The notes: generated from the sequence alone by a model not told the origin. DNA of 64,000 nt from Picochlorum sp. SENEW3 (GCA_034226945.1 CP120455.1:1116001-1180000), one strand, 5' to 3'. Shown: positions 1,376 to 40,029, numbered from the stretch's first letter. A program made the numbers and translations.

Positions 1376-4300
1376 TTAAGCAACCTGGGTGGTACTGAGC
1401 GATACTGTGTCAAGCGTGCCAATCCATCCCTTCTGTCCAATACCAGGTGATGAATTATCGGCAGGTACTCCATTTCCAATATCTTTGCATGCCTGCATGG
1501 TGGCACGTCTGGTGACCACACCGAAATAATTTGCCTGGTACAAATCCTCCCATGGTTTGAAAACATTTGCATACATGTAATTCTCAGCATCTGTGAATGT
1601 TGGAGAGGTTGCCTCCGTCTTATCAAATGGCCAATTATTAGTGGCAAAATCACTGCAATCGCTTTTCTGGTTGGACTTAAAGTAAAGCCTCACGTGAATT
1701 CCTACACCAGCAGCTGAATTATCAATAGCTTTGACTTCCATCGTGATGTCTTTGGTTGTCAGAGATTCAGAGGTGGCCCAGTTCTTAAATGCCTTGACCA
1801 CATGAACACCTACATTGCTCATTGAATTTGAGGTGTCACCTGAATATGACGTTTTTGTGAATGCTGAGAGTGAAACAATCACTTGGATTCCAACATTGTT
1901 GTCTGGGCAATTGTTGCTCTGGCACAGAACTGGGTTATCATCTTCCTCGCACAGTGGGTTTGTACCCACACTAATACTATTTGGTGGCGAGACAGCGCCA
2001 GGATTATAATAAGCCAACTGATTTGTGCACACGGAAGATGTCGGAGGCTTCCACTTGTGACATTTAGATTTGTAGTTTGTCACCATTCGAATGGAGGTGT
2101 ATCCAAAAGTGTTTCGGTCAAACAGCGAGTCCATTGGACTGAAAGTTTTTCCTGAGGGCGGCTGGACAGCCATTAGAGTATCCCTGACGTACTTCGTGTA
2201 GTCAATGCAGTCCTGTTGACTGTTAAACCACACTCTGAATTTGGCGCCAGCCCCATGCTGAGAATTATCAACGTTGAAAATCCTCATGCACACAGGGCCC
2301 AGAGCTTTGGTTGACCCTCCGTATGACCTTGATGTTGTAATACTGTTGCTCAAACTTTGGAAAGCCTTTCCTTGGATGGCAAGGGTGCTGTCAAACTCGA
2401 ACTTATCCCATCCCTCAAAGTTTAAAATTATTTGAGCTGCTACCCTACCAGTATTTGCACCAATCTTGTCTGGGAACTCATTCACACTATCACATGATGA
2501 GTAGGGTGGCTCAGGAAGCTTTTCAGCAGCCAGCGCTGGCTCGTTTGGATCTTGACCGTCCACATATATGAATGTCTGAATTCCAGGCTCGAGGAGCATT
2601 GCTGATGTCCCAGAGGGAGAAGTTGTGTACGTCACTCCTGACGAGCAGAGAGAGGTGCAGGAATTAAGTGTGACTCGTACATAACATGTGTATGCATTGC
2701 CTGGGCTCAAGTCAGTCACAATCCCACTTGTCACTGACAAGCTATAGTTCCCGCTACCAATCTTCGCAGCACCACAGGAATCTCCAGCTGACACACAGAA
2801 GAGGTCGTATGTCGGACTGCTTCCAGACACCGCAGTCCATGACAATTCCAAGGTGGTATCTGTAGCGCCATTCACAGTGAGTCCGGTTGGACTGTCAGGC
2901 GGACTACATGGCACCTCAGTCAGCGATGGCGAGCAGGAGGAAGTGCCGCAGCTGTTCAGTGCCTGCACATAGCACGAGTACGAGGTCCCATCCGTCAGGC
3001 CTGTCACTGTTCCACTCGTTCCTACCACACCTGTGCCACCACTGCCTAGCTTGGAATCACTGCACGCTCCCCCAGAAGCCACGCAAAAGAAGTCGTACGA
3101 ATCTGCACCCCCAACAGATGACCACGCCAAGGTGAGGCTCGTTGCAGACGCCACCGTCAGGCTGCTCAACGTTGGTTGGGATGGCAGACTGCATGGTGGT
3201 GGTGGACTTGGTGGTGGTGGACTTGGTGGTGGTGGACTTGGTGGTGGTGGACTTGGTGGTGGCGGACTGGGTGGTGGTGGACTTGCTTCTGGAGGTGGCG
3301 GACTGGGTGGTGGTGGACTTGCTTGTGGAGGTGGTGGACTTGGTGGAGGCGGACTGGGTGGTGGTGGACTTGCTTCTGGAGGTGGTGGACTTGGTGGAGG
3401 TGGACTTGCTTCTGGTGGAGGGGGACTGGGTGGTGGTGGACTTGGTGGTGGCGGACTTGCTTCTGGAGGTGGTGGACTTGGTGGAGGCGGACTGGGTGGA
3501 GGTGGACTTGCTTCTGGTGGAGGGGGACTGGGTGGTGGTGGACTTGGTGGTGGCGGACTGGGTGGTGGTGGACTTGCTTCTGGAGGTGGCGGACTGGGTG
3601 GTGGTGGACTTGCTTGTGGAGGTGGTGGACTTGGTGGAGGGGGACTTGGTGGTGGCGGACTGGGTGGTGGTGGACTTGCTTCTGGTGGAGGGGGACTGGG
3701 TGGTGGTGGACTTGCTTCTGGAGGTGGTGGACTGGGTGGTGGTGGACTTGCTTCTGGAGGTGGTGGACTGGGTGGTGGTGGACTTGCTTCTGGTGGAGGG
3801 GGACTGGGTGGTGGTGGACTTGGTGGTGGCGGACTTGCTTCTGGAGGTGGTGGACTTGGTGGAGGCGGACTGGGTGGAGGTGGACTTGCTTCTGGTGGAG
3901 GGGGACTGGGTGGTGGTGGACTTGGTGGTGGCGGACTTGCTTCTGGAGGTGGTGGACTTGGTGGAGGCGGACTGGGTGGAGGTGGACTTGCTTCTGGTGG
4001 AGGGGGACTGGGTGGTGGTGGACTTGGTGGTGGCGGACTTGCTTCTGGAGGTGGTGGACTTGGTGGAGGCGGACTGGGTGGAGGTGGACTTGCTTCTGGT
4101 GGAGGGGGACTTGGTGGTGGCGGACTTGCTTCTGGAGGTGGTGGACTTGGTGGAGGTGGACTTGCTTCTGGTGGAGGTGGACTTGCTTCTGGTGGAGGGG
4201 GACTTGGTGGTGGCGGACTTGCTTCTGGAGGTGGTGGACTTGGTGGAGGTGGACTTGCTTCTGGTGGAGGGGGACTGGGTGGTGGTGGACTTGGTGGTGG

Positions 4301-6078
4301 CGGACTTGCTTCTGGAGGTGGTGGACTTGGTGGAGGCGGACTGGGTGGAGGTGGACTTGCTTCTGGTGGAGGGGGACTGGGTGGTGGTGGACTTGCTTCT
4401 GGTGGAGGGGGACTTGGTGGTGGTGGACTTGCTTGTGGAGGTGGTGGACTTGGTGGAGGCGGACTGGGTGGTGGTGGACTTGCTTCTGGAGGTGGTGGAC
4501 TGGGTGGTGGTGGACTTGCTTCTGGAGGTGGCGGTGGAACAGGTGATGGAACAGGTGAAGGTACGGGCAATGGAACAGGTGATGGAACAGGTGATGGAAC
4601 AGGTGATGGAACAGGTGATGGAACAGGTGATGGAACAGGTGAAGGATCAGGTGATGGAACAGGTGAAGCAATGGGAGCGTTCGCAGAGGTCTGCGATGCG
4701 CCGATAACCTCAAGATATTGCTCCACCGTCTCGGGAGTATCAGGTTCTTCAACAGACGTAGGAACAGGAAGAGGGTCTCCAGTTCCGTCGCTGCCCTGTA
4801 TCCCAAAAGTGTATACTTTGTCTTTTGGCAATATGTATGGTTCCTCTGTGAATGAACATGTTTGGAATGATTCTCCTTCAAGCTGTCGAAGGAGTCTCGA
4901 GAGCCTTCTGGAAGTATCCGTGGTATTCCTATTTACTGATTCGCATGGGCAGATAACATCTGGAGTTCCATTGTTGTCGTAAGCTATTGATGACAAATTG
5001 TAAGGGGGCTTTCCTGCAACAGGCTCTTGCACCACAACGACCGCTCTGTTGTTTTCTTTATCATAATCGATGGCCATAATTTTAGGTGCAGCTTTTTCTA
5101 GATCCTCTTTCGGCTTTTCCGCACAGATTCGTGGAATAAGGGTTCCTCCTTCAACATGAACATATCCTAGCCTCATTGACCGGGGAAAGAGCTCCCTCTG
5201 AGAAACTTTCCTGCGTCCAATTTTGTAAATCAACTCTTGGAGCTTCTTCAAAGAGGACTTTGAGGGGCCTTGTACGCTCAAGTTGATCACAGGTTTGCTC
5301 TTGTAATCTCCAACCCGTGCATCGTTGTCAACAAACCAATCAAAGTCTATCATAGCCTTTTGCCCTGCCTTTGTCAGGTGACTTTCCAAGCATTTCACCA
5401 ATTTCTTCCCATACCTGATTGCATTGTATTTCGTTGGCTTTCGATCTTGTAGAGCTAACGAAGCATGCAACGTGGGAATCAGTCCAGGAACAGAATCTGA
5501 AGGGTCAGTGCCATTGCGAAGTACAAGGCAGGACTTGGTGAACCCTTCGATATGCACAGCTCCGAAAAAGCGATCCTGGAAGACACGTCCGAGGTCATTC
5601 TTGAGATCCTCCTCAATAAAGTCCTGTATTACGGCATCAGTTGTGTTCCCAAGCCACGTGATACTAGTATGCACAGCAGTTCCTGTATCTTCCCCCTGGA
5701 GGCCTAGTATTCGGATGTCCACCTCGCCCGGAAGACCACGCCTCAGCAGCGCCATATATCCCTTCGACATTCGTTTAAATGCTTTAGGTTTATACTTTGG
5801 GATGGTAATGCTGGCAAATATGTTCCTGTAGAGACGGGCAGTTCCAATAGTGCTTGCAGCGCGTGATGACACGCCTCTCCGTGACAGAAACTCATCGTAG
5901 AAGTCCAGTTCAATATCATCTCTGTAAAAAGACAGACCTCATACGTCAAATGAATGAAATAGGGCAATTACGTGCATATATTATTAATTGCAGTAACGTA
6001 CTCATCGAGCTCCTCTGAGTTGGCGGGGCCCAGCCCGACGGCAGACAATAAAAGGATACAGATAACTGCTACCCGCAT
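1376..6078 (-). CDS. Secreted hydroxyproline-rich (extensin-like) cell-wall/surface protein with two fibronectin type III domains; 2 exons
   Basis: Exon 1 (6078-6002) encodes signal peptide MRVAVICILLLSAVGLGPANS. GT-AG intron 6001-5922 joins in frame to the 1498-aa ORF. About 450 aa of SPPPP/EASPPPP repeats. FN3 signatures (LxWxxV...Y...GLTDGTSYSCYVQA.N; LSPGNAYTCYV). Confidence 0.88.
3193..4665. repeat. Coding tandem repeat: 15/21-nt units for SPPPP and (E/Q)ASPPPP (3193-4533), then 12-nt units for SPVP (4534-4665)
   Basis: Visible ggtggtggactt / gcttctggaggt / ggaacaggtgat periodicity. Explains the long spurious ORFs in the other frames. Confidence 0.97.
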
Positions 6079-35900: not shown

Positions 35901-36709
35901 AAGAGGTGTCAGAAATTATGTTTGCTAATTCATCATTGCTCGATATCAATTCAAAAGGTAATAACAACTCACCTTGAATCCTTTGTACACAAGCCCTTTC
36001 TCGTACAATTGCTTGAAAACCCACCACACACTCTCCATGAATGTTGGATCCAGCGTCTTGTAATCATTCTCGAAATCAATCCAGCGCCCCATTCTGGTCA
36101 CAATACTCTCCCATTCCTTTGAATATCTCATCACAATACTGCGGCATTCCTCATTGTAATTTGCAATACCAAGATCGAGAACATCCTGACGAGTCTTTAT
36201 ATCTACACAGAAGAGGACACCCCAGTCAATCGCAACCGGCCATGAACACCCTCCCAACTGACACCAATTCACATACCAAGCTTCTTGTCAATCTCATACT
36301 CCACTGGCAGCCCATGGCAATCCCATCCAAAACGTCGTGATACATGATGCCCAGTCGCACTAGCATATCGAGTCACAATATCCTGCAATCACACAAGGCC
36401 AGTAACATCATCAGCCTCTTCACACAAAGCAACCCTGTCCTCGGCCATGCCGCCACCCCAAAACCCACCACCCACCCTCAAACGCCCTACATATTCAATG
36501 CATACACATACTTTGATCGTTCCAGCGAGCAAATGACCATAATGAGGCATGCCAGTTGCAAAAGGAGGGCCGTCAAAAAAGACATATTCTGGCTTCCCCT
36601 CAGTTCGCCGCAATTGCTCATGAAATGCATCGATGGAATTCCAATACTTTAAAATCTTCTCTTCCTCGTCTGGAAAGCTGAAAAAGCGGCTCTCTCGCAC
36701 ATCCTCCAT
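32969..36709 (-). CDS. IARS1: Cytosolic isoleucyl-tRNA synthetase; 4 exons
   Basis: Introns 36511-36383, 36276-36203 and 35972-35771. [14 protein letters not shown] (HIGH), [32 protein letters not shown]. Confidence 0.97.
35848..35941 (-). ncRNA. Candidate intronic box C/D snoRNA in IleRS intron 3
   Basis: Box C ATGATGA (35936-35930), D' CTGA (35912-35909), D CTGA (35855-35852), terminal stem GAGC/GCTC. D box about 80 nt from the 3' splice site; the 202-nt intron is much longer than its neighbours. Confidence 0.7.
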
Positions 36710-36994
36710 TGCTGCTGGTCGCCGGATGCAGAGAACTCACAGTTGCTGGGTGATTGCAATCTGTTCGGATTCTATCACACTCTATGAAATAATTTGTTTT
36801 GAATACCACAAACTGTGGTTACTGAATCGACACATCAGCGCAATGCACTGAGCATGCAAACTCTCCTTATATAAGATTTTAAGTATAGTTTTTAAATGCA
36901 TACGAAATGCTGTATTCGCTCCGTTATCGACCCATTGGAAATTCTTTCTTTATTTAGTAGCTCACGTGTCTTTCTCATTGATGATATATCGTCA

Positions 36995-37400
36995 ATGGGC
37001 GAGTTGGGTGGCAAAAAAGACGACTTGACAGACGATACAGTGCTCAAATCTGCTCGAACGCGTTGTTACAAGGTACATATACGGTATATTTGATCCATTT
37101 TTGAATTTAAAAGGCATGATGTAGTGATTGATTGCTTTTCTTGTGCATATGCAGGCTAGGGACGACTATTACCAGTGCCTTGATAGCAGAGGAATAGAGC
37201 TATCTGCCAGCGATCCTGTGCCCGAGGTCTGTGCGAAGCAACGGAAGGATTTTGAGGCTTCTTGCAAGGCATCTTGGGTCAAACACTTTGACGCGACACG
37301 AGACAGGGAAGCTGGGGTGTTGAGAACCTTGAAGTCCAATATCAACGCGAGCGAGAAAAGTTCAGTAGGGACTCTTGCAGGGAAAGACCAGAGGGATTGA
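36995..37400 (+). CDS. COA6: Cytochrome c oxidase assembly factor COA6-like (107 aa); 2 exons
   Basis: Intron 37073-37154. RTRCYKARDDYYQCLD...CAKQRKDFEASCKASWVKHF gives the Cx9C-xn-Cx10C COX6B/COA6 motif. Confidence 0.85.
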
Positions 37401-37428
37401 ACGGCACCTGGAGGGGCTCAAAGTCGGG

Positions 37429-37788
37429 ATGGCAAAGGATGATGAACTGAAGAAAAAGAGGAAGAGGGGGTCGGAGAGCCCGAGCCGAGGCCAGCAAGAC
37501 GATAAGAAGAAGAAGGGCTCAAAAGCTCCAGTGACACAGCAAGTCCAGAAAAAAGAGGTGCAGCTGGATGCAGAACTGACTGCAGAGGAGATTCAAATGA
37601 TGGTTGCCATGGGTATACCTTTTGGATTTGAAAGTACTCAGGGAAAGCACGTGGAGGATGAAGCTGCGAATCAGGGAGCTGTCAAGACTGCGACAAAGCG
37701 CACTGCTCGGCAGTACATGAATCGCAAGGGTGGTTTCAACAAAGCCTTGCCAGCGGAGAAGACGGGAGAAAAGATACGAGGTGACTAA
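37429..37788 (+). CDS. SNRNP27: U4/U6.U5 tri-snRNP 27 kDa protein
   Basis: EEIQMMVAMGIPFGFESTQGKHV...KRTARQYMNRKGGFNKAL is the SNRNP27 C-terminal signature. Confidence 0.92.
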   Translation: MAKDDELKKKRKRGSESPSRGQQDDKKKKGSKAPVTQQVQKKEVQLDAELTAEEIQMMVAMGIPFGFESTQGKHVEDEAANQGAVKTATKRTARQYMNRKGGFNKALPAEKTGEKIRGD

Positions 37789-37803
37789 AACGGGTTGAAT
37801 AAA

Positions 37804-39751
37804 TTAAATATATTTCATCAGACTCTCATTCTCAGCCAAAGCGTTTGAAGGTTTTTTCGCCCTGGAATCTAGAGTGTAGAACTTTGGCGCCCTGTCTGGG
37901 TAGCAGACTTCACTACAGTTCGATCTGCAGCCCTGATCGAATGGATTCGTGAAATCTCCATCATCTGCATGTAAATATGTATACCGATGCCAGTTTGATA
38001 GCTCATTTGTAGTCACATTTCTGGACACTTGTGAGGCCTGAGCTATTGCCAATGCTGCAACAGATATTAGCAGAACCATATCAAAGACCACAAAGATGAT
38101 TGGCAGAATGATGGAGGGACTCGTAGAATCATTCGATATCTTAATAGCTGCAATATAAAATGAATAAAAGAGTTTGAGGTGGCTCGCATGATCAGACACA
38201 CATACATGAAAACAGGACACACATACCTCTCTGCAGGCACGACACCACTGTGATCCCACTAGCCAGTATGGCAGCTAATTCGAGCCACAAGAACACTAAA
38301 AAGTAGTGTCGATTCCCTTTCCCAATCGCATTACCTACCCATGGGCAAAAATGATCGAAACATTGCACGCAACGATCTGTTGTCGCACAATGCTTTGCCC
38401 GGAGTGGTCTCACAATGCGGCATGTGACACACAACTGACTCCATTGCCCTGCCCATAATGCTGGTGAATTCATCGAGGATTCATCTGATTTCCCCCCCTC
38501 TTCCATTCTTCTATTATTTGCTTTACTTCCAGACAGCGTTCCTCGAATCTCATGCTTTGATCCGACGGTGTTCCTGGGCAAAAATCCAGGGTCGGCAACA
38601 GTGGTCTTGTACAAGAAGATCAGGCCCACAAATGCCAACGAATACGTGATCCATGCACCAATTGTAATCAGAGTTGCAGATGCGGGGAAAATATCACTAT
38701 TCCAGACGATAGAGACGGACAGCAATCCCAACATACTCAGTATGATTCCCCAAATGACTGGTGCCAGATGCAGTCGAGACAGAGTTGCACACAACCCTCG
38801 ACTGCTGCCCCTCCTTGACTCTTTATGATACCGATACTCGGCGAGATTTAAACCGAGACCTCGGTGCCCCTTATCTATTGCCAACTGTGACGGAGTACAA
38901 CCAGATGCATCCGTGGTCTCCAGGGCATCTTCAGCCCCGCCCTGGAGCAACACCATACATGCATCCAAATGACCCTTCATTGCCGCCCAATGCAATGGGG
39001 TGCACTCTTCAATATCCATTTTCATAACATCCGCATCCATCACGATCAATAGCTTGCATGTATCACGAAACCCTTTATACGCCGCCCAATGAAGCGGTGT
39101 CCTACCATCTGCATCTGGCGAGTCTATATCAATGCCCCATTTCATGTACAAGTAGTACAAGATTGAGGTCTGCCCGTACTGAGCAGCTACATGACACAAC
39201 GAGTATCCTTTCGAATCTACAATCTTCGCATCACTTCCAGCTCGCAATAACGTATCCAGTGCACCCAAAGAACCCCGGACCACTGACCAATGCAGAGCAG
39301 TCTGTTTCGTCCTGTCCTGGGCATTGATATTCACCCCCTGATCTATGAGATATGCCACAATACTCACCCTATTATTCAGGGCTGCCCATTGCAGACAGTA
39401 ATATCCTTGATCATCTGGTCTATCCAGAATTTCCTTGACAGCATCCACCTTCTTTACTGCATTCGCAACAGGCGCTTGCTTCCCAGACCGCAAACCCGCC
39501 TGCTCCTCAACCAACTGTTTCAGTTTATCAAAGTCCCCGTACGCACAGGCCTTCCACACTGCATACAAAATATTTAAAATATTACTAAAAATACATTTTA
39601 TGCCTATATTCAATGCAAAATCACCAATCGACCCACCAGTGTCAATCTCTTCAACATCCCCTTGAGAGGACCCTTTGCGAGACTGAGGCTTCTTCTCCTC
39701 TAGGGTGGTTATTTCAACCACCTTTGATGAGTCATTTGCTGTATCCCCCAT
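37804..39751 (-). CDS. Ankyrin-repeat DHHC protein S-acyltransferase (TIP1/PAT24/AKR1-like); 3 exons
   Basis: Ankyrin repeats (TALHW, TPLHWAA); CVTCRIVRPLRAKHC...DHFCPWVGNAIG; NVTTNE and NPFDQG. Introns 39636-39559 and 38226-38148. Confidence 0.92.
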
Positions 39752-40029
39752 TATTGGGACAATATATGCAGTTTATTGTGTGAGACAACGAAGATTTGGA
39801 GGGCACATGTCTGGGTCGAATTGTATTTAATGTACTGATTAAGGAATTGTCTCGGCATTCATGAAAGCTTCTTTCCTGACAGTATAGTTCATAATTTCAT
39901 GCAAACCCTTGTTATTTATTCAATTTTCATATATGTCTCTATGTTTATGAGGCCATGAGTGGAAGATATCGGCACTGTACCATTTGAACGTAGCTCTCCG
40001 TCTGATTTTACAGGAATACGCGCTGTACA

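Follow-up and report, generated by a model that had tools for sequence, protein, structure and literature searches.

COA6 and SNRNP27 genes

Two ORFs lie next to each other on the plus strand of the window (the whole stretch of DNA analysed, 64 kb in length): COA6 (ORF1) and SNRNP27 (ORF2). The 64-kb window contains no second copy of either gene. The host is a compact marine or brackish green alga. COA6 is split into two exons. Exon 1 (36995..37072; 78 nt, phase 0) opens with the start codon at 36995-36997 and carries the first Cys of a CX9C motif, and exon 2 (37155..37400) closes with a TGA stop codon at 37398-37400, giving an ORF of 107 codons (324 nt). The intron between them (37073..37154) is 82 nt in length, has GT..AG ends and is missing from the X1, X5 and X7 contigs, which come from three studies. 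SNRNP27 is a single exon (37429..37788; 360 nt, stop codon at 37786-37788) that encodes a protein of 119 aa. The ORFs are separated by a spacer of 28 nt (37401..37428) that contains neither ATG nor TGTAA and is crossed by RNA-type contigs. The coordinates stated in an earlier note on this DNA, those of the 28-nt spacer among them, all proved exact when checked by reading of the sequence and by script.

The translation of ORF1 shows a twin-Cys pattern, in which the CX9C motif straddles the junction of the exons and the CX10C motif lies in exon 2. Exon 2 has the conserved domain PF02297 (COX6B; 5.1e-12, above the Pfam gathering score). Compared with PDB sequences at E<=1, ORF1 matches three distinct COA6 sequences only, and no COX6B subunit chain is among these matches. 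ORF2 has the conserved domain PF08648 (SNRNP27; 8.3e-22, above the Pfam gathering score), matched over profile positions 2-55 of 56, and among PDB sequences is similar only to human SNRNP27 (chain 6qw6_X, 2.6e-13). Because of these Pfam and PDB sequence matches, the names COA6 and SNRNP27, which had been assigned from the sequence alone, are justified. The N-terminus of the ORF2 protein is short and Lys-rich. Four longer SNRNP27 proteins (P0001-P0004), which are the matches found among 884 candidates, instead have a long Arg/Ser/Asp-rich region.

The probable 5' UTR (36932..36994, plus strand) is delimited by RNA-type contig starts at 36932 (X7) and at 36969 (X1, right after adapter letters). 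The probable 3' UTR (37789..38023, plus strand) includes a TGTAA at 37970-37974, and X1 contigs end at 38012 and 38023, where adapter letters follow; because the strand of these X1 ends is unknown, they support the end of the 3' UTR weakly. The probable 3' UTR overlaps the 3' end of a convergent minus-strand gene. Upstream lies a divergent minus-strand gene, the contig of which ends at 36767. An out-of-frame ATG at 36981 opens a uORF of 15 codons (36981..37028, plus strand) that overlaps the COA6 start codon and lies inside X1 and X7 contigs. This uORF was not mentioned in the earlier note.

ATG depletion and start codon contexts

The spliced stretch from ATG to ATG measures 352 nt, and a script search of the 349 nt between the start codons finds no ATG in any frame, as had been claimed. 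The genomic ATGs between the two starts (37116, 37119 and 37149) are all intronic, and ORF1 has no internal Met codons. An ATG-free outcome is obtained in 0.975% of 20,000 shuffles of the ORF1 codons and in 0.14% of mononucleotide shuffles; the absence of ATG between the two start codons exceeds chance expectation. When the strain differences seen in X1, X5 and X7 are applied to the sequence, ORF1 stays open and no new ATG appears before ORF2.

At the COA6 ATG, position -3 is T and position +4 is G, which makes -3 the only weak position of its context. The SNRNP27 ATG has G at both -3 and +4. These are the contexts that had been described for the two starts. The only plus-strand TGTAA within 36900-38300 is that at 37970, about 180 nt past the ORF2 stop codon, in line with the earlier observation that the spacer is devoid of this motif. 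As TGTAA is absent before 37970, any COA6 mRNA must continue through ORF2.

The upstream ATG (uATG) at 36981 is 14 nt upstream of the COA6 ATG and has a weak context, with T at -3 and A at +4. The next AUG beyond the stop of its uORF (37028) is the SNRNP27 start. In L001, the closest relative among the metagenome loci discussed below, the uATG is missing at the homologous place. By this sequence comparison the uATG at 36981 appears to be lineage-specific. Its place in the probable 5' UTR is a complication for a model with only two starts.

RNA evidence at the locus

Although 22 public runs cover part of the stretch, the RNA comparison uses four runs, from four studies, over the region 36300-38600. 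All four consist of assembled contigs, not raw reads. X14, an oligo-dT metatranscriptome, is the sole run recorded as RNA, and X1, X5 and X7 are RNA by guess. In the X1, X5 and X7 contigs (three studies), the 82-nt intron is spliced out at a 37072^37155 joint; because the intron is skipped, these runs hold spliced cDNA.

One contig, X7 record 16, is a single sequence of 1153 nt that covers 36932-38128, has the intron removed and spans both ORFs. Its strain of origin differs slightly (23 letters changed and 9 gaps). The spacer is also crossed by X5 record 12 (37043-37605, spliced) and by X1 record 3 (37366-37526). The X14 contigs cover 37501-38086 only, which corresponds to ORF2 and the 3' UTR, and are uninformative on ORF1 and the spacer. 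The X7 contig extends into the convergent minus-strand gene at its 3' end, and this run-on indicates that the assembler fuses overlapping transcripts. Both ORFs are very probably carried on one mRNA; contigs of this kind cannot show single molecules or exclusivity. In X1, depth differs between the ORF1 and ORF2 contigs, and contig depth cannot rank gene parts.

Conservation in metagenome relatives

When metagenome contigs were scanned with the ORF2 protein, 80 loci with a SNRNP27 relative were obtained. By tblastn, 45 of these 80 loci carry a same-strand COA6-like ORF directly upstream. Measured between the stop codon of ORF1 and the first ATG in frame for ORF2, the spacer ranges from -4 to 112 nt in 44 of the 45 and is mostly 11-23 nt; L049 falls outside this range, with an ORF2 start that was mis-called by the first in-frame ATG rule. 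TGA is the ORF1 stop codon in 42 of the 45, but these represent only about 11 independent groups. Among the remaining loci, the SNRNP27 exon of L014 is preceded, at a distance of 2.4 kb, by a Pfam COX6B ORF, and L053 has a weak two-piece COA6 match.

The length of the ATG-free run was tested in 21 of the 45 loci, which were hand-picked as non-duplicates with an upstream ATG. The run before the ORF2 ATG is 263-669 nt (as compared with median ATG-to-ATG gaps of 20-71 nt in the same 21 loci) and ranks between first and sixth of all gaps on both strands at every locus tested. The -3 position of ORF1 is a pyrimidine in most of the 23 loci with an assignable open in-frame start; the exceptions have G (L048, L051 and L052) or A (L036 and L049). 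The -3 position of ORF2 is a purine at the start of every relative except the mis-called L049. L001, with 88% aa identity, shares the 78-nt exon 1 and the intron position with the window, has a spacer of 15 nt and lacks ATG in 339 spliced nt. Both the gene arrangement (45 of 80 loci) and the ATG depletion (21 of 21 loci tested) are conserved in these relatives.

COA6 was not found in 33 of the 80 SNRNP27 loci by tblastn with seven diverse COA6 queries, so the arrangement is not universal; some of the 33 hold little upstream sequence. The most distant of them are probably not green algae. The COA6-less loci include L003-L012, in which SNRNP27 is 66-72% identical. Searches of the whole of these ten loci on both strands with the seven queries gave no COA6 matches at E<=1 (tblastn). 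For three of the ten (L004, L007 and L008), a set of 56 plus-strand upstream stop-to-stop ORFs (at most 3 kb upstream, at least 25 aa and at least two Cys) was also searched with Pfam, and none matched COA6; small exons split by introns may have escaped these searches.

Comparison with published green algal bicistrons

The curated bicistronic loci of high confidence in Duenas 2025 (PMC11892635) number 36 for C. reinhardtii and 43 for A. protothecoides. Published work on such loci (Gallaher 2021; Duenas 2025) describes three sequence signatures, all of which the window shows: the inter-ORF is short, the ORF1 start is weak at -3, and AUGs are depleted upstream of ORF2. Dataset S1A of Duenas 2025 includes the C. 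reinhardtii pair Cre10.g466000 (ORF1) and Cre10.g465950 (ORF2, CGL148), which is rated high confidence and labelled an 'obligatory polycistronic transcript', with 114 and 99 Ribo-seq reads on the two ORFs. The listed sizes are 109 nt for the 5' UTR, 315 nt for ORF1, 181 nt for the inter-ORF and 690 nt for ORF2, with 0 ATG in ORF1 and 0 in the inter-ORF. In Dataset S5, Cre10.g466000 is assigned to COA6 InterPro families and Cre10.g465950 to IPR013957 (SNRNP27). According to Gallaher 2021 (PMC7896298), the inter-ORF of this pair was used for co-expression of mVenus and RPS14-EmR from one transcript in vitro.

The pair is recorded in eleven further chlorophyte species, six of them by colinearity alone, with a range that takes in other Chlorophyceae, Trebouxiophyceae and Mamiellophyceae (PMC11892635). 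Dataset S2 of that work lists Volvox (EST), Dunaliella and Chromochloris (Iso-Seq), Ostreococcus and Micromonas (colinear), A. protothecoides (A12.36760/36755), C. sorokiniana (PacBio), and Prototheca, C. vulgaris and Nannochloris (colinear); the Coccomyxa cells for this pair are empty in the dataset. A full-text literature search found no paper naming both COA6 and SNRNP27, and in print the pair appears only in supplementary tables, as gene IDs and InterPro names (PMC11892635).

The window locus resembles Cre10.g466000/Cre10.g465950 in both protein families, in gene order and strand, in an ORF1 of about 100 codons (315 nt in C. reinhardtii and 324 nt in the window) and in the lack of ATG from ORF1 and the inter-ORF. 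The inter-ORF is 181 nt in C. reinhardtii but 28 nt in the window, and ORF2 is 690 nt as compared with 360 nt, the window protein being without the long N-terminal region. The comparison covers protein families, gene order and ORF layout. Iso-Seq, Ribo-seq and in vitro translation pertain to the C. reinhardtii locus, whereas the window locus is known from its sequence and from RNA contigs.

In A. protothecoides, the pair UTEX250_A12.36760.1/A12.36755.1 (labelled CGL148) likewise has a COA6-family ORF1 (300 nt) and no ATG in ORF1 or the inter-ORF, and it has colinear copies in Prototheca, Chlorella and Nannochloris (Duenas 2025, Datasets S1B and S2B). This locus differs in that the authors flag the orthology of its ORF2 to Chlamydomonas as uncertain and in that, in the InterPro sheet, the SNRNP27 label is on the neighbouring ID A12.36775.1 (PMC11892635). 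Out-of-frame 5'-UTR ATGs number one in the window, one in the Chlamydomonas ortholog and two in the Auxenochlorella ortholog (PMC11892635). A further likeness is to P0004 (Chromochloris Cz08g20060.t1, 409 aa), which is 68% identical to ORF2 over 61% of ORF2 and has a COX6B domain (residues 12-70) and a SNRNP27 domain (residues 343-399) in the same order as the window. On these grounds of family, order and sequence features, the window locus can be classified as an ortholog of the published chlorophyte COA6/SNRNP27 (CGL148) bicistron.

Two other A. protothecoides bicistrons, TOM22_SDHAF3 and OST4_FAM32A, share their architecture with the window: a small ORF1 with a start context that is weak (in the window at -3 only), AUG depletion and a consensus-like ORF2 start. 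These are different genes, and the leaky-scanning mechanism is carried from them to the window by analogy. In vivo, deletion of the ORF1 AUG or weakening of its context in these two Auxenochlorella bicistrons raised ORF2 output, and strengthening of the ORF1 context or addition of a spacer AUG lowered it; the authors of Duenas 2025 (PMC11892635) take these mutants to favour leaky scanning over reinitiation and an IRES. CDC26-TTM3 (land plants and algae; Duenas 2025) is likewise a nuclear bicistron that is deeply conserved and opens with a small ORF; its genes differ.

Proposed model for COA6 and SNRNP27 expression

It is highly likely that one spliced mRNA makes both COA6 and SNRNP27 by leaky scanning. 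The claim of one mRNA for both proteins, made in the earlier note, is in keeping with the published C. reinhardtii locus, with the three sequence signatures and with the spacer-crossing contigs. For the window, the continuity of single RNA molecules, the translation of the two ORFs and leaky scanning as the route are proposed from orthologous and analogous loci.

The proposed model is as follows. A single capped RNA polymerase II transcript would start near 36932-36969 and would probably be polyadenylated after the TGTAA at 37970. Removal of the 82-nt intron would yield a mature mRNA with both ORFs. Scanning 43S complexes would arrive at the COA6 AUG, with its pyrimidine at -3, and part of them would initiate there, producing a 107-aa twin-Cys protein predicted to go to the mitochondrial intermembrane space. 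The remaining 43S complexes would pass through 349 nt without an AUG in any frame and would initiate at the SNRNP27 AUG (G at -3 and +4), producing a 119-aa protein of the tri-snRNP. The ratio of COA6 to SNRNP27 product would be set by the strength of the ORF1 start context.

The uORF allows for an elaboration of this model. Ribosomes that reinitiate after the uORF could skip COA6, because the AUG they meet next is that of SNRNP27. A three-start switch could in this way route ribosomes past COA6 to SNRNP27, with the product ratio tied to the availability of ternary complex (stress); such a switch is unlikely.

Alternative explanations

The two proteins could be made from two overlapping monocistronic mRNAs, with the SNRNP27 transcription start site inside COA6 and SNRNP27 carried by the long COA6 mRNA as an untranslated 3' UTR. 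Contigs cannot separate such an overlap from one molecule, as the merging of X7 with the convergent gene illustrates, and many algal loci are only partly polycistronic (Gallaher 2021, PMC7896298). An internal promoter needs no ATG-free ORF1, yet out-of-frame ATGs are depleted both here and in the 21 of 21 relatives tested; the 28-nt spacer is too small for a separate promoter outside coding sequence; and the Chlamydomonas ortholog is listed as obligatory polycistronic, with Ribo-seq reads on both ORFs (PMC11892635). Overlapping mRNAs are therefore considered quite unlikely. A single locus could also yield two mRNAs that share a first exon, with COA6 exon 1 joined to an acceptor-like TCTTGCAG within exon 2 (37373..37380, plus strand; splice point 37380/37381). 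The predicted 37072^37381 isoform of SNRNP27 would gain an N-terminal extension of 42 residues, of which exon 1 would supply 26 and the stretch before the SNRNP27 ATG 16. The earlier note had raised this alternative, and two parts of it stand: the acceptor-like sequence is present, and the join is in frame and open. Its use in splicing is not supported. An open in-frame join is a cheap property, because 4 of the 29 AG sites in exon 2 and the spacer yield one. The homologous join in L001 is out of frame with ORF2 and runs into a stop soon after, and the AG is not kept in L002; the site lies within COA6 coding sequence, which accounts for its partial conservation, and it is judged to be a chance feature of that sequence. 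The 37072^37381 joint is absent from the contigs of all four runs, while 37072^37155 is present in three, although contigs drop rare forms. The rejection of a shared exon is mainly due to the lack of frame conservation in L001, the absence from contigs being weak evidence. The fusion of COX6B and SNRNP27 domains in gene model P0004 would agree with a shared exon, but the Chromochloris locus is listed as two ORFs with Iso-Seq-supported bicistronic transcripts (PMC11892635). Because the curated table gives two such ORFs, P0004 is most simply read as a legacy fused prediction. A shared first exon is extremely unlikely.

With one mRNA carrying both ORFs, ORF2 could be reached by termination and reinitiation, after either ORF1 or the uORF, instead of or besides leaky scanning. 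Short spacers (28 nt here, and -4 to 112 nt but mostly 11-23 nt in 44 relatives) would suit this route, and the uORF both overlaps and bypasses the COA6 AUG, with the SNRNP27 start as the next AUG; this uATG is, however, missing in L001. ORF1, at 107 codons, is long, and eukaryotic reinitiation is inefficient after long ORFs such as this. Reinitiation after ORF1 also needs no AUG depletion inside ORF1, whereas leaky scanning does. The effect of inserting a spacer AUG is compatible with both models, but the rise in ORF2 output when the ORF1 start was lost or weakened in two other algal bicistrons is opposite to what reinitiation predicts (PMC11892635). Together these points make reinitiation very unlikely. 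Two further routes were considered and rejected. Stop-codon readthrough is at odds with the spacers, as that of the window (28 nt) is out of frame and those of relatives (11, 15, 18, 20, 21 and 23 nt) keep no consistent frame. A spacer of 28 nt is too short to make a case for an IRES, and published tests oppose an IRES at other loci (PMC7896298, PMC11892635).

Annotation and significance

The locus is best annotated as a single transcript with two ORFs, and neither as a fusion nor as one gene with a long 3' UTR. For the Chromochloris ortholog, a fused model of 409 aa continues to circulate. The COA6-SNRNP27 bicistron is already known and is conserved in green algae, and the window copy is one further instance of it. 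As green algae are already known to have nuclear bicistronic mRNAs that are translated by leaky scanning, the locus adds little for general biology. COA6 is a mitochondrial complex IV assembly factor and SNRNP27 a spliceosome protein; the two proteins are unrelated.

To the published record of the pair, the present analysis adds uncultured relatives of marine and estuarine origin in which spacers are very short and ATG-free runs extreme, the lineage-specific uATG suggested by the comparison with L001, and a group of SNRNP27 loci without an upstream COA6. The short spacers (mostly 11-28 nt), retained in different lineages, and the prevalence of TGA as the ORF1 stop might reflect a coupling between ORF1 termination and ORF2 initiation.

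Genes flanking COA6 and SNRNP27

COA6 (+ strand, ATG at 36995) forms a divergent pair with an aminoacyl-tRNA synthetase gene on the - strand, and the two start codons lie approximately 283 nt apart. The synthetase belongs to class I, and its N-terminal exon lies at 36389-36736 (PF00133, E-value: 4.4e-14). Ends of the RNA contigs (assembled from public runs) at positions 36767 and 36932 flank a gap between the two genes, so that roughly 165 nt are left for a bidirectional promoter.

Downstream, SNRNP27 (+ strand) is convergent with a gene encoding an ankyrin-repeat DHHC palmitoyltransferase (- strand; 38192-39772, with further exons to about 37804). This gene has a minus-strand intron, seen as a skip at 38147^38227 with CT..AC on the + strand. 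The SNRNP27 3' UTR overlaps the 3' end of the palmitoyltransferase gene, and the two genes are joined within RNA contigs.

SNRNP27 and COA6 in related loci

The SNRNP27 protein of the window (37429-37788) is short, at 119 aa compared to 155 aa for the human SNRNP27 chain. Its N-terminus is Lys-rich, whereas longer relatives from algae (P0001-P0004; 214-409 aa) have long N-terminal regions rich in Arg, Asp and Ser. The longest of these, P0004, is Chromochloris zofingiensis model Cz08g20060.t1 (409 aa) of a public protein set; this model has the COA6 and SNRNP27 domains in a single polypeptide. A curated table lists the Chromochloris locus as two ORFs on one transcript (PMC11892635). The fusion probably arose through misannotation of a bicistronic locus.

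Among the metagenome loci, L003-L012 encode SNRNP27 relatives with 66-72% identity to the window protein, and searches across the whole of these loci yielded no COA6-like ORF. The bicistron may be disrupted in this lineage, or its coding sequence may be heavily interrupted by introns. Coccomyxa cells are likewise blank in the published conservation tables of the bicistron (PMC11892635).

Of the 45 loci with COA6 upstream (within L001-L061), 42 end the COA6 ORF with TGA and three with TAG (L058, L059 and L061). These loci represent only about 11 independent groups, so the predominance of TGA, set against background stop usage, may have no meaning.

G-rich tandem repeat

A long G-rich tandem repeat (3193-4859; unit approximately GGTGGTGGTGGACTT) accounts for the longest ATG-free stretches of the window (1353 and 1665 nt, both strands). 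Translation of this unit would give a Gly-rich repeat of the GGGGL type.
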